From positions 83,700,001 through 83,764,000 of the forward strand of contig NC_043002.1 of NCBI RefSeq assembly GCF_006345805.1: a stretch of 64,000 nucleotides of DNA, in the 5' to 3' direction. The translations under genes and the position numbers were made by a program. Each line of letters starts with the position of its first letter. The first letter of the stretch is position 1. The DNA comes from Octopus sinensis (Eukaryota). The notes under the pieces are model-generated. The model did no database searches, had not been told where the DNA came from, and was given only the letters and a program-made list of their open reading frames with translations. Shown here piece after piece: positions 18,481-52,350 of the stretch.

Positions 18481-18680
18481 TGTAACCTCATGTGAATCGT
18501 TGGCGATTTTCTTCCTCCATCTTCCCTTCTATTGGACTTTCCTGTTTCCGAAGAAGAGCGTCTGCTCGAAACGTTAAACTATCTTTCTTTCCTTTTCTGA
18601 GCGTCTGCTAATACAATCCATGTACCACGTCCTCGCGTTGTTATGTTTTTTTTTCGTATTTTTCTTCTTTTTTGGATCCA
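18481..18680 (+). mobile_element. About 200-bp non-coding hammerhead-bearing element in (TA)n
   Basis: Homologous to the reverse complement of 38229-38415; contains GTTT-CCGAAGA-A-GAGC(GTCT)GCTC-GAAAC-GTT-AAAC at 18544-18579. Confidence 0.7.
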
Positions 18681-18836
18681 CTATATATATATATATATAT
18701 ATATATATATATATATATATTATATATATATATATATATATATATATATATATATATATACATATATGCATATACATATGCATATACATATGCATATATA
18801 CATGCATATATATACATATGCATACATACATATGCG

Positions 18837-19463
18837 CAGGGTGCGATGAATAAATTGTCGTGTAAATTACGCAAACATGTCTCATTTTAACAAATATACT
18901 TACCAAATTTACATAAAAATATCTTGAAATACCAAACAGTAAATTTATTCAATAAAATCGCCATTGGCTTCAACTACGGCCTCCAGACGACTTCGGAATC
19001 TCTTGCAACTCTCTGGGCGGTCTCTTTGTTTAAGTTAGTGAATGCTGCCATAATCTTTGCTTTCAATTCATCTCTGATGTTACAAGGAGTTTTGTTGGTC
19101 TCTCGCTCAGCTGCGCCCCACACATAATAACCATGGAGGTTGTTTTCTGGGGAATTAGGTGGCCAGATGTTTGGTGTGATGTGGTCGCAGAAATTTCTGA
19201 CAGCCATGCTTGGGTACTCCTGCTTGTGTGGCATGGTGCAGGATCGTGTTGCCAGACATAGAGTCTTCCAGCACACACCCTTTTGACCCAGGGCAGCACT
19301 ACCTTCTCCAGGCACTTGATGTTGGCCTCCGTGTTGAGTCTATGGCCGTGCGGAAAGATGAAGGGAGACATAACGTCGACATCACTAGTGATTACTCCAG
19401 GCAAACAATGCGCATGCGTGAAACAAAAATATAAAATGGTGACAGTTTACCCATCGCACCCTA
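18837..19463 (-). mobile_element. Internally deleted Tc1/mariner element, DD37D/maT-like
   Basis: TIRs CAGGGTGCGATGAATAAATTGTC and GACAGTTTACCCATCGCACCCT; frameshifted WQHDPAPCHTS..TQAWLS / WPPNSP..YYVWG catalytic region. Confidence 0.85.
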
Positions 19464-19609
19464 TATGTATGTATGTATGTATGTATGTATGCTTGTATGT
19501 ATGTATGTATGTGTGCGTATGCATATATATATATGCATATGTGTGTATGTATATATTTGCATGTGTGTGTATGTATATATAAGCATATATATATAAACAT
19601 ATACATACG

Positions 19610-19997
19610 TGGCACTCCGTCGGTTACGACGGTGAGGGTTCCAGTTGATCCGATCAACGTAACAGCCGGCTTGTGAAATTAACGTGAAAGTGGCTGAGCA
19701 CTCCACAAACACGTGTACCCTTAACGTAGTTCTCAAGCAGATTCAGCGGGACACAGAGTGTGACAAGGCTGGCCCTTCGAATTACACGTACAGCAGAAAC
19801 AGGGAAAAATAGTGAGAGAAAGTTGTGGTAAAAGAGAACAGTGGGGTTCGTTCGCCACCACCTCCTGCCAGAGCCTCGTGGAGCTTTAGGTATTTTTGCT
19901 CAATAAACGCTCACAGCGCCCCGGTCTGGGAATCGAAACCGCGATCCTACGACCGCGAGTCCGCTACCCTAACCGTTGGGCGATTGCACCTCCACAC
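19610..19997 (-). mobile_element. Composite tRNA-headed SINE
   Basis: Head TGTGGAGGTGCAATCGCCCAACGGTTAGGG...GGTTTCGATTCCC on the minus strand, joined to a body matching 14140-14357. Confidence 0.7.
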
Positions 19998-49071: not shown

Positions 49072-49302
49072 TATTTCTTTACTACCCACAAGGGGCTAAA
49101 CACAGAGAGGACAAACAAGGACAGACAAAGGGATTAAGTCGATTACAACGACCCCAGTGCGTAACTGGTACTTAATTTATCGACCCCGAAAGGATGAAAG
49201 GCAAAGTCGACCTCGGCGGAATTTGAACCCAGAACATGTGACAGCAGACGAAATACGGCTACGCATTTCGCCCTGCGTGCTAACGATTCTGCCAGCTCGC
49301 CG
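49072..49302 (-). mobile_element. SINE type B
   Basis: Reverse complement of 6494-6726. Confidence 0.88.
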
Positions 49303-49599
49303 ACGAAAATGCCTCGAAGCTCTTAGCTCCAGCATTTGAAACTCTGAGTTCTATTACGACAACTTACTGATTGTCCTATACTATATATATATATATAGTA
49401 GAATAATAAAAGAAACTTCTTGGTACAGCATTATGGATATTTGAAAAAATGAGTAAAGAAGGCGCTTTGGCAGGGATAACTTTTATTTTAATCTTAATAA
49501 TACTGTATACAGTGAGTTAGTCTGATATGAGTTTCGAGCTTCAAGTAGCCGTTTTCAAACTTCATTCTTGATTATCCATGTTGGACGAATAATGAGGAG

Positions 49600-51290
49600 A
49601 CAACACAAGGACAGACAAGGGGTCGGGGAACGAATGAAACAACATGAAGGTGTACATAAATAAAACTGATGATAAATAGATACAAAATCGAATGAATTAA
49701 CAAAAATGTAATGAGGGACGTGGCCGACCCCCACAAACCACATTCCAACACTGAGTACCTGGTAGACCCTTTATGCTCTCGCTCAAACAGGTTCACTCGC
49801 TCTCAACAAACTTGCTACACTCTTCTATATTTTCCCGAACACTCCGTGTGACAAGCATCTCCTCTCCAGCTTTATTTTTCTTTTTAAGTGAAAAAGAAGA
49901 AAGTCAACCAACTAAGGTTGGCGATGAAGATGCCCGTCGCGATCCCTTTCATTCGCGTCTTCCTTATAACCTCCTTCGTAGTAGCTACTACACAGAGGAA
50001 ACAAGGCTGCTCTTCCCTATTCAGAGAAGACGGCGGGTATATCTTAATTATAGACTCGGATGACAGTTGAACTCTTCCTTGTCGTGACAGCAGTTGTTCG
50101 GAATAAACCCAAAGTTCCTTAATCTTCGGACATTGCACAATTGCGTGCAGAACAGTTTCACGGTCCTGCCCGCATCTTGGAGAAGTTGGCGTGGATGAAG
50201 AACCATGTCTGTAAAGTTTATCCTGAACAGGTAAGGTTCCTCGGTAATATTGCCATGCCAGGGACTTCTGGAAATTATCAATGGGCCCTGGACCAAATGT
50301 TCTCCGGTACAGGCCGGCGGGTTGACCTTCATCGAAGCCCAGGGTTTCTCCCAGGGCGTCGTCACGTTTGAACTCTACCAGCCCTCTATAAAATGACATT
50401 GCCCGTCTGGGAAAGAAGCAAGAGTGCCTGACGACACTCTGCTTGCCAAGCACCCAACTTCGGTCCACGCTTAATCCATGGCTTCAGTTCACTAAAAAAG
50501 GTGAAACGCGGAAGCAACAGTCTGACGAACAGAGACCACACATGCTTACCGTCCAGGTAGATCCAGCGATGCCTCAGCCTCAGCGCATGCCTGCGCATTT
50601 TTAGCCATGACATCCCCAGCCCATCCTTCAGCGGTTGTTGGCAGCAAATAGAGCGCCTTACAAGTTCTCCAGTCCCGCCACAAATAGCAGAAAAGCATGC
50701 GTTCCAACTTATTCAGTCACGAATCTGAGCAAAGCACGACGGTTAGGCGATAAGTAATACCAGATGCAATAAACACACCTGCAACCTCTGCCCTCCCTTT
50801 CAGGGATAGCTTCCGCTCATGTTAGGTCTGAGTTAGGAGAGCCAACCTGCTGGCGACCTCGCTCCAGTTCTTTTCTATCTGGAAGTCTGGGCCGAACTAG
50901 ATCCCTAGCATTTTTACCGGTCCGTTCAACGTCCAGCAAGGCTGTTGGGCGGCATCGATTTGCCCCTCCAGGTGCCGAGTTCCAAGCCTACCGATTTATC
51001 CCGGTTAATTTTTGCTCCTACCACCGCTTCGTAATCTCTTGTGGCCTCACCTACCCACTGTAGGTGTTCGACCCGGAATACGATTACGGTGATGTCCGCA
51101 TACGCCGAAACCGATTTTCCACACCCTAGATCTCGCGGGATGCCTCTCATAGCCTCCAACTTCCGCAGCAATAGCTCGAGGGCCAAAACATACAGACGTG
51201 GGAAGAGAGAACACTCTTGCCGTACCGAGCGCTCAATGCAGAACGGTTCCGAACATAAACCGTTCACCCGAATGATCGATGTTGCTATAT
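49600..51290 (-). mobile_element. L1/Tx1-clade LINE ORF2 remnant (RT plus C-terminal zinc finger), 5'-truncated and frameshifted
   Basis: RSVRQECSLFPRLYVLALE..AYADITV (RT QG.PLSP / YADD region) and LAWQYYRGTLPV..PRCGQDRETVLHAIVQCP. Confidence 0.85.
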
Positions 51291-52167
51291 AAAGCGGTGA
51301 TCCACCCATGGAAGGTCGGGCCAAACCCGGCCAAACCCGGCCAAACCCGGCCATCGCAAGGACCGCCGCAAGCTTCTTACCACACAACCACGCTTGCACC
51401 TATATATATGGAGGGATGGGGTACGTGTCTATCTATATCTATCTATCTATCTATCTATCTATCTATCTATCTATCTATCTATCTATCTATCTATCCATCT
51501 ATCTATCTATCTGTCTGTCTGTCTGTCTATCTATCTATCTTTATGTATGTATATATGTATGTATGTATATATATGTATATATATATATATATATATATAT
51601 ATATATATATATTATATATATATATGTATACATATTTGTATATTATATATATATATATATATAATATATATATATATATATATATATGTATATATGTATT
51701 ATGTATGTATTGTGTATGCATTACGTATGTACGTACGTATGTGTATGTGTTTATGTGTGTGTGTGTGTGCGTGTTTGTACTCGTGTGCATGTCTAATTGG
51801 AACATAGATATGTATACATCTACGTTCAAGTTATAAACCAAATACATCCAGGTCGCATAAGGAGTGGGGCATATCCTACTGTATTTGAACATGTAGGAAG
51901 GTCATTGATATGTTGAACAATGGAAGTCTATAAATTCTCAGTCAAATGAAGAAAGCACATGCATAGAAATACTACTTCGTGTAGAAGAATATAATATTGG
52001 ACAAAGCCATAAGTTATTGACAAATATTCAATGTAATGTAATGTATTCGAATATTTTTTTTATATACACGTACATACACAAATGCACACTACATAAATCT
52101 CATCAACACGTTTTTCAGCTCCCTGTATACATATATAAAACAATGCTATGCGTGTATGCAATCATTA

Positions 52168-52350
52168 TATATATATAGGGAGAGTTTACGAAAAAACAAA
52201 AGACGAAGACAGGTGGTGTACAAAACAAACAGATGTATTAGTATAACGCTCAGGAATAGAAAAAGTCTTTTACGTTTCGAGCCTACGCTCTTCTACAGAA
52301 AGGGACACCGAAAAAGCAAGGAGAGAAACAAGGAGAGAAAAAAAGTGATA
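52168..52350 (-). mobile_element. Hammerhead-like non-coding element in (TA)n
   Basis: Minus strand CTTT-CTGTAGA-A-GAGC(GTAG)GCTC-GAAAC-GTA-AAAG; decayed homolog at about 62870-63005. Confidence 0.6.

Follow-up and report, generated by a model that had tools for sequence, protein, structure and literature searches.

Within a 64,000-nucleotide stretch of the Octopus sinensis genome (NC_043002.1, positions 83,700,001 to 83,764,000, here called the window) there are four short repeats with hammerhead motifs, all next to microsatellite DNA, which raises the question of what these repeats are and how they reached such sites. The initial annotation treated them as one family of non-coding elements of about 200 bp sitting in (TA)n, and offered two readings: retrozyme-like units, possibly spreading through circular or multimeric RNA, or solo pseudo-LTRs (pLTRs) mobilized by the RT of Penelope-like elements (PLEs).

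Repeats in the window and their hammerhead motifs

The four repeats are real and lie where they had been placed:

18478..18682, + strand: copy 1, a solo pLTR of subfamily A1 with TA-type microsatellite on both sides; its 5' start is ~6–9 bases past the initiator-like site
18544..18579, + strand: minimal type I hammerhead motif of copy 1, U4C core CCGAAGA at 18548, predicted cut after 18575
38162–38221: (TA)n beside copy 2
38222..38585, − strand: copy 2, a 5'-truncated 3' end of subfamily A2 (~365–385 bp), reaching ~150 bp beyond the initiator-like site into CA-rich 3'UTR
38316..38350, − strand: minimal type I hammerhead motif of copy 2, canonical core CTGACGA at 38346
38428..38433, − strand: initiator-like hexamer TCATTC in copy 2, where family A copies most often have their 5' end; its A is at 38431
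52178..52347, − strand: copy 3, a solo pLTR of family B with (TA)n on both sides
52267..52302, − strand: minimal type I hammerhead motif of copy 3, A6U core CTGTAGA at 52298
62866..63010, − strand: copy 4, a decayed family B solo pLTR within (TATG)n
~62946–62981, − strand: decayed motif of copy 4

Identity is 74% between copies 1 and 2 (across ~170 bp) and likewise 74% between copies 3 and 4 (across ~120 bp); copies 1 and 3 have only ~70 bp around the motif in common. On these pairwise identities the supposed single family splits into two, A (the repeats listed initially at 18481 and 38229) and B (52168 and 62870). The subfamily of copy 3 is young, its closest copies being 96–98% identical. 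The size of ~200 bp holds as a preferred size, because the 5' boundary described below is sharp, but not for copy 2, which ends at ~38585–38605. Similarly, the (TA)n setting is correct for copies 1 and 3, but not for copy 2, which lacks (TA)n on its 5' side, or for copy 4. The statement that none of the repeats has an ORF is true insofar as the window holds no A or B coding DNA, but false for the families genome-wide.

The three cores reported for the clearer copies were all found, and stem II GAGC/GCTC, its loops GTCT, TCT and GTAG, the extra A, GAAA-CG-U-H and stem I (4 bp) were verified. With its palindromic helix III, G10.1-C11.1 pair, extra base between 9 and 10.1, and helix I of 4–5 bp, the motif has these structural features of the PLE min-HHR and, to judge from this layout, is the minimal type I hammerhead already published for PLEs. 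The motif descriptor, applied to evenly spaced genome samples totalling 1 Mb, gave seven matches, compared with none in each of 10 shuffles, and an exact genome-wide pattern had 22,050 matches, compared with zero for the reversed control; thus, the motif is not a product of chance. Isolated motifs folded no better than shuffled ones (z −0.6 to −1.7), no hammerhead family was returned when the stretch of copy 2 was searched against Rfam, and the best 150 of 296 Rfam matches in the whole window were all of the microsatellite type, with no hammerhead among them. Stem II is invariant among the motifs compared, and one stem pair is altered on both sides (G-C or G·U in A, C-G in B), which amounts to a single event separating two lineages. 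The cores among the first 100 genomic matches listed were A6U (59), U4C (21), canonical (18) and other (2), and the A6U core of family B has 14,389 matches genome-wide. Most copies thus carry an altered catalytic core and are predicted to be weak cutters.

Linkage to coding Penelope-like elements

Longer genomic copies of both families continue upstream into DNA encoding RT and GIY-YIG endonuclease with a CX4CxxC linker, so that the linkage to PLE ORFs that the initial annotation set as a check was found for A and B alike. In 20 of 30 loci found by an ORF-end anchor, the same strand carries a family A end no more than 1.5 kb downstream. RT/EN is located upstream of the end in 8 of 9 (A) and 9 of 11 (B) extended loci, which were picked mostly by protein matches; in an unselected 1 Mb, family coding DNA adjoins 3 of 22 ends. 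Pfam RVT_1 scored above cutoff in B, and GIY-YIG slightly below cutoff in both families. In addition, 373 longer relatives were found, the best listed being 48–71% identical; they carry RT domains and, in part, GIY-YIG domains. Translations of single copies contain the DKG motif, the CX2-5CxxC linker and, in the endonuclease, the CCHH motif; none of the ORFs found was intact.

Locus L189 has the full pLTR-ORF-pLTR layout, a partial tandem pLTR precedes the ORF in L189, L035 and L222, and inverted arms were spotted by eye in L413, L414 and L436. Among 38 elements chosen by their 5'UTR, an upstream pLTR abuts in 28. Judging from these sequences, both families are the 3' ends (pLTRs) of coding EN+ PLEs with a linker of the Neptune/Nematis type. 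The outcome is therefore largely the one that the initial annotation had set against its own proposal. Neither family matches the features of Hydra clade PLEs (DKT, no CCHH, CxCX5C linker). The neighbouring PLEs of the window (53107–54300, + strand; 58061–61043, − strand) are not linked to the repeats, as they represent a different family with RT ~30% identical and a motif of its own; nor does copy 3 represent an inverted pLTR of theirs.

Ends of the repeats and their probable origin

The 3' end is fixed, typically with (TA)n-type flanks, and abuts microsatellite in 255 of 311 cases, or in 23 of 40 under the strict test of wholly unselected ends; 5' flanks are microsatellite in 78 of 124. Such flanks hide any target-site duplication. 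Solo 3' ends read ACT-A in 42 cases vs ACT-T in 22, as do long copies (28 vs 15, P=1), unlike the internal pLTR/5'UTR junction (27 T vs 3 A). The 3' letters thus argue against exact priming at this junction as the main route and do not fit it as the only one.

The 5' ends cluster ~190–215 bases from the 3' end at a hexamer (TCATTC in copy 2) that we take to be initiator-like. In family A, 48 of 83 fall at −5..+15 (21 bases) and 11 upstream. The family B pile-up is broader, with 17 of 47 at −5..+15, 16 at +16..+40 and six upstream, and in an evenly spaced sample four of nine B copies extend upstream; its profile lacks an exact TCAKTY, which is present in one B subfamily. The same site limits the upstream pLTRs of elements that retain the 5'UTR, 24 of 28 beginning at or past it; the exceptions that start upstream are the other four, plus L189 and L035. 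Inspection by eye found no downstream promoter element. In four runs (one guessed to be RNA, the others of unstated kind), summed contig depth, which is not copy number, rises ~8–20-fold at the site. The positions of these DNA copies suggest that the hexamer likely marks the RNA start. A search for RNA data sets containing the repeats listed none. The runs guessed to be RNA consist of contigs, mirror the profile of the other runs and list no repeated end-to-start joint; they carry no weight either way.

With RT/EN in cis and microsatellite flanks, the evidence supports the solo pLTR reading, including mobilization by PLE RT and microsatellite targeting. We consider it probable that the repeats are solo or 5'-truncated pLTRs of two related EN+ PLE families, whose own RT + GIY-YIG protein likely inserted them into TA microsatellites. 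RNA polymerase II would initiate at the hexamer, and the PLE protein would nick (TA)n and then begin cDNA at the pLTR end, using either a long RNA, with a start at the internal pLTR/5'UTR junction, or a short RNA from a 3' or solo pLTR. Running off the RNA 5' end would yield the unit of ~190–215 bases; shorter copies would be ordinary truncations, and longer ones the 3' ends of long RNAs. The hammerhead may be retained as a carried-along structure, its cutting probably being unnecessary for making copies. There are precedents for several of these steps: the Penelope pLTR has a start site, an initiator and an internal promoter (PMC2377424), and the RT of Poseidon of Anolis initiates internally, close to the pLTR-ORF junction, and needs no hammerhead cutting in vitro (PMC11167929).

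In a bolder and rather less probable version, the solo pLTRs that run from the initiator to the 3' end, numbering tens of thousands, would each be the full-length cDNA of a short capped polymerase II RNA, in effect a Penelope-driven SINE. The hammerhead would then be mainly a protein-binding or priming structure and not a cutter, family B having reached, on this reading, >14,000 copies with the fold kept despite a crippled A6U core.

It is rather unlikely that the short units are self-propagating, SINE-like non-autonomous elements, each with an internal promoter that drives transcription into the TA flank and with the PLE protein acting in trans to copy the RNA again. Their 5' and 3' ends are discrete, their 3' letters agree with long 3' ends and not with the internal junction, short copies far outnumber long ones, and the 3' pLTR of Penelope contains a working promoter (PMC2377424). 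However, a sample of 119 short copies and 102 long ones, drawn by their similarity to a few queries, shows no fixed diagnostic change and no private subfamily change, and short–long identity equals the average of the identities within the two classes (A2, 0.879 vs 0.899/0.866; B, 0.895 vs 0.905/0.887), so that this sample reveals no separate master lineage.

It is less probable still that the 5' boundary is a joining artefact, produced when cDNA is captured by microhomology between AT-rich boundary bases and the (TA)n target. The family A boundary is indeed AT-rich and many 5' flanks are microsatellite (the 78 of 124 above), but that of family B does not resemble TA, and even so 7 of 47 copies begin no more than 3 bases away from it; furthermore, several junctions are flanked by non-repeat DNA, and upstream pLTRs of long elements stop at the same boundary.

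Spread as non-LTR retrozymes through hammerhead-cut circular or multimeric RNA is highly improbable: a type I hammerhead does lie within a ~200 bp unit, its motif is conserved above the flanks between A and B (28/36 vs 93/187 columns) and a preprint derives retrozymes from pLTRs (10.64898/2026.07.22.740005), but the cut site is mid-unit (~95–105 bases from the 3' end) and not terminal, close pairs are separated by variable microsatellite with no fixed junction, cores are mostly non-canonical, both families are ORF-linked and short copies have no private changes. Three of 30 copies in one search started at the cut site, but that query began there, and a less biased search with a shorter query found none in 37. 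The tandem arrays that the initial annotation proposed to look for did not appear: neither the window nor 1.96 Mb of loci contains head-to-tail arrays of 150–450 bp units, and the latter contain no HHR-bounded tandem units.

Relation to known elements and implications

The motif shares with the PLE min-HHR (Cervera and De la Peña, 2014; PMC4209133) the type I layout, the extra base between 9 and 10.1, the G10.1-C11.1 pair, palindromic 15.2-16.2 and a 4-bp helix I; min-HHRs likewise occur as thousands of mostly single copies associated with truncated PLEs. Helix II has 4 bp here, compared with 7–8 bp in Schistosoma min-HHRs, and A6U and U4C cores are lineage-wide here, whereas the available text of that paper reports only U3-A8. 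The EN+ Neptune and Nematis elements (Craig et al., 2021; PMC8557442) have the same order of RT and C-terminal GIY-YIG, the DKG and CCHH motifs, a linker of matching class (CX2-5CxxC, vs CX4CxxC here), pLTRs, inverted arms and a microsatellite bias; the fixed 5' start of solo pLTRs seen here is not described for them in the available passages of that paper. Among the rows of its supplement that were listed, the octopus families (Naiad_Obim, Naiad_Ovul and Hydra-1_Obim) belong to other clades.

Penelope of Drosophila virilis has its RNA start and initiator within the pLTR (PMC2377424), where the DNA copies also place the putative start in A and B, and in Poseidon the RT start is internal to the RNA and close to the pLTR-ORF junction, as in one of the routes proposed here, with hammerhead cutting unneeded and leaving no RNA ends (PMC11167929). 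Unlike A and B, the Penelope/Poseidon clade lacks the linker, and its RT start lies in an AC-rich stem with a 30–40-base tail (PMC2377424; PMC11167929), whereas the junction here is a TA-like stretch of 7 bases, with no long tail seen. Non-LTR retrozymes are also short, non-coding, pLTR-related units with a type I hammerhead, but form tandem arrays of mostly canonical, efficient cutters with circular RNA (PMC7229834; 10.64898/2026.07.22.740005), unlike the dispersed, ORF-linked monomers of A and B with their minimal motifs.

The element type is thus already known and families A and B are new members of it. A literature search that covered neither Repbase, Dfam and subscription journals nor most supplements returned no description of the two families, of an A6U core in PLEs or of initiator-bounded solo pLTRs. 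For annotation, there is a risk that ~22,000 to 60,000 such ends, which belong to PLEs, are taken for SINEs or for repeats of unknown type. Regeneration of the pLTR and the role of the hammerhead are open questions in PLEs (PMC2377424; PMC8557442). The DNA copies appear to preserve a record of the RNA start, and the canonical, U4C and A6U cores of the sister lineages provide a natural comparison on whether cutting matters.

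The repeats and their coding partners

The four repeats, at about 18481 (+), 38229 (-), 52168 (-) and 62870 (-) (copies 1 to 4), are all present in the window, where repeat analysis finds microsatellites to be plentiful. The initial annotation placed them in a single family, which sequence alignment separates into two: copies 1 and 2 align with 74% identity across about 170 bp and copies 3 and 4, also with 74%, across about 120 bp. What the two pairs have in common is about 70 bp surrounding the hammerhead motif. We refer to copy 1 as A1, copy 2 as A2 and copies 3 and 4 as family B. 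Copy 2, originally drawn too short, actually reaches about 38585-38605. The 3' end is fixed in all families, and the 22 ends within 1 Mb of sampled genome (2.72 Gb; the window is positions 83700001-83764000 of one contig) extrapolate to roughly 60,000 genome-wide.

The A and B repeats are ends of coding Penelope-like elements (PLEs): the suggested check on linkage to PLE ORFs revealed DNA for reverse transcriptase and GIY-YIG endonuclease (RT/EN) upstream of both. The upstream walk from copy 2 crosses a CA-rich stretch of 1-1.7 kb to an ORF end; at 20 of the 30 loci found via this ORF end, an A end lies on the same strand ≤1.5 kb downstream. Upstream sequence is common to A1 and A2 (12/30 loci in the A1 set). 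The family B walk also reaches RT and endonuclease DNA. Among 20 extended loci, RT/EN lies upstream of 8/9 A and 9/11 B ends, figures that speak to existence and not to frequency because these loci were mostly selected by protein matches; in the unselected 1 Mb, coding DNA adjoins 3/22 ends. Pfam RVT_1 scores above its cutoff and GIY-YIG just below. We identified 373 longer relatives, the few named including shark, coral, anemone, snails and urchin. On a comparison of features with those in PMC8557442, the A and B elements match the Neptune or Nematis type, as opposed to Hydra or Penelope/Poseidon.

One locus (L189) has the layout pseudo-LTR (pLTR), 5'UTR, ORF, 3'UTR, pLTR. An abutting pLTR was detected in 28 of 38 elements chosen by their 5'UTR and not in the other 10, some of which have short remnants. 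No intact ORF was found among the A and B elements examined. An octopus repeat annotation already lists PLEs, and hammerheads go unmentioned in its main text (PMC13282606). Inverted pLTR arms stand head-to-head at the 5' junction at L413, L414, L436 and L126, and a tandem array of about 4 kb with a 27-base period lies directly upstream of a family A element (L187:1-3932).

Other elements in the window are as follows.

57149-61043, -: near-full PLE of a family other than A and B, ending in (TA)n
58061-59851, -: its RT + GIY-YIG ORF (597 aa; Pfam RVT_1, weak GIY-YIG)
about 57223-57260: its hammerhead-like motif (U3-A8 core, CCGG helix III)
53107-54720, +: broken, 5'-truncated PLE, protein about 60% identical to that of the element at 58 kb
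near 54490-54527: decayed hammerhead-like motif of the truncated PLE
45454-45960, +: GIY-YIG-like fragment of a third family (weak Pfam match)
29572-30099, +: DDE transposase (Transposase_1) remnant
55624-56073, +: Pif1 helicase remnant, presumably Helitron-like
49887-50483, -: zf-RVT LINE remnant

The near-full PLE has a CX4CxxC linker and an N-terminal part at 59824-60411 in a different frame; a piece 97% identical to it is found at L074. A relative of the third-family fragment (L036) is 69% identical, with an inverted arm.

The 5' boundary and the origin of short copies

The proposed unit of about 200 bp is borne out, as lengths cluster (A about 203-220 bp, B about 150-200 bp) even with queries limited to the 3' part. 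We placed 5' ends on profiles using copies not chosen for 5' extent, excluding those that missed the 3' end or scored <25 bits (351/384 passed these two filters), duplicates and locus-edge copies. In family A, 48 of 83 5' ends fall at -5 to +15 around the A of TCATT(T/C), with 11 upstream and 24 later; this hexamer is the profile's sole match to TCAKTY, an initiator consensus. Wholly unselected A copies are in agreement (10/19 at the boundary). For family B, 17/47 lie at -5 to +15 of (C/T)(T/C)AGTC, 16 at +16 to +40, 8 further on and 6 upstream. Agreement is poorer for the evenly spaced B copies (2/9 at the boundary, 4 upstream). In long elements, 24/28 upstream pLTRs keep to the boundary, 6 of these starting at -5 to +15. 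Summed contig depth, which carries no copy number, rises at the boundary, likewise in runs from two other organisms. Penelope transcription is described as starting at an initiator within the pLTR (PMC2377424), and rotifer pLTRs as being 193-218 bp long, having initiator-like sites and occurring as solo copies (PMC3846280).

Two short blocks outside the hammerhead, ATCGTTRGC and TTCCTGAGCG, are conserved between A and B, at positions about 15-35 bases past the initiator-like site and roughly 20 bases past the predicted cut site; they are candidate promoter or protein-binding signals.

RT would run off the 5' start of the RNA, setting the 5' end of the copy. In Anolis Poseidon, RT is reported to initiate at a site internal to the RNA, close to where pLTR and ORF meet (PMC11167929). 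At the 3' end, solo copies have A in 42 cases and T in 22, similar to long copies (A 28, T 15; P=1) and unlike the internal junction (by hand count, T in 27 and A in 3), and we therefore lean towards short RNAs, made from a 3' or a solo pLTR, as the source of solo copies. However, the short-versus-long comparison found no private changes of short copies, so that no separate master is seen. Close pairs have a variable microsatellite between the copies and often mix A and B, as expected of re-insertion into TA tracts. At L050, L176, L180, L051 and L307, a copy that starts at the initiator-like site often has the end of another copy 12-40 bases away in the same TA tract; the two occur in either orientation and may belong to different families.

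The hammerhead motif

The motif runs 4-bp stem I, 7-base core, extra A, GAGC-loop-GCTC, GAAA, CG, U, H, stem I, and matches the minimal type I hammerhead as described in PMC4209133 except that helix II has 4 bp. Its descriptor has 7 matches in evenly spaced samples totalling 1 Mb (0 in 10 shuffles), and the exact pattern 22,050 genome-wide (control 0). Between A2 and B, 28/36 columns are kept in the motif and 93/187 elsewhere. In the first 100 genomic matches, tallied by hand for stem I, the outer pair is G-C in 27, G.U in 13, C-G in 55, U.G in 1 and mismatched in 4. Stem covariation appears weak, given a single compensatory event and a stem II without variation. The same 100 matches comprise 59 B cores, all with U at position 6, and 41 A cores (18 canonical, 21 U4C, 2 other). 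For the A6U pattern there are 14,389 matches, which include all four bases at position 7. A natural A6C variant is reported to cut slowly (PMC3088659); our literature search found no description of an A6U core. Further hammerhead-like motifs, at L232 and other loci, belong to other families and have U3-A8 cores or CATG, GCGC or CCGG helix III.

No 5' ends coincide with the cut site in 37 copies, and 3/30 do so in another search, whose query itself began there. That 5' ends are not gathered at this site fits the dispensability of cutting in vitro reported in PMC11167929. The defining traits of retrozymes are tandem arrays and circular RNA (PMC7229834; preprint 10.64898/2026.07.22.740005); the search for arrays that the initial annotation proposed turned up none of retrozyme type in the window or the examined loci.

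The repeats are real, abundant and of a known kind of element; the initiator-bounded start of solo pLTRs goes beyond that known type as a testable extra, and the lineage-wide A6U core is another.
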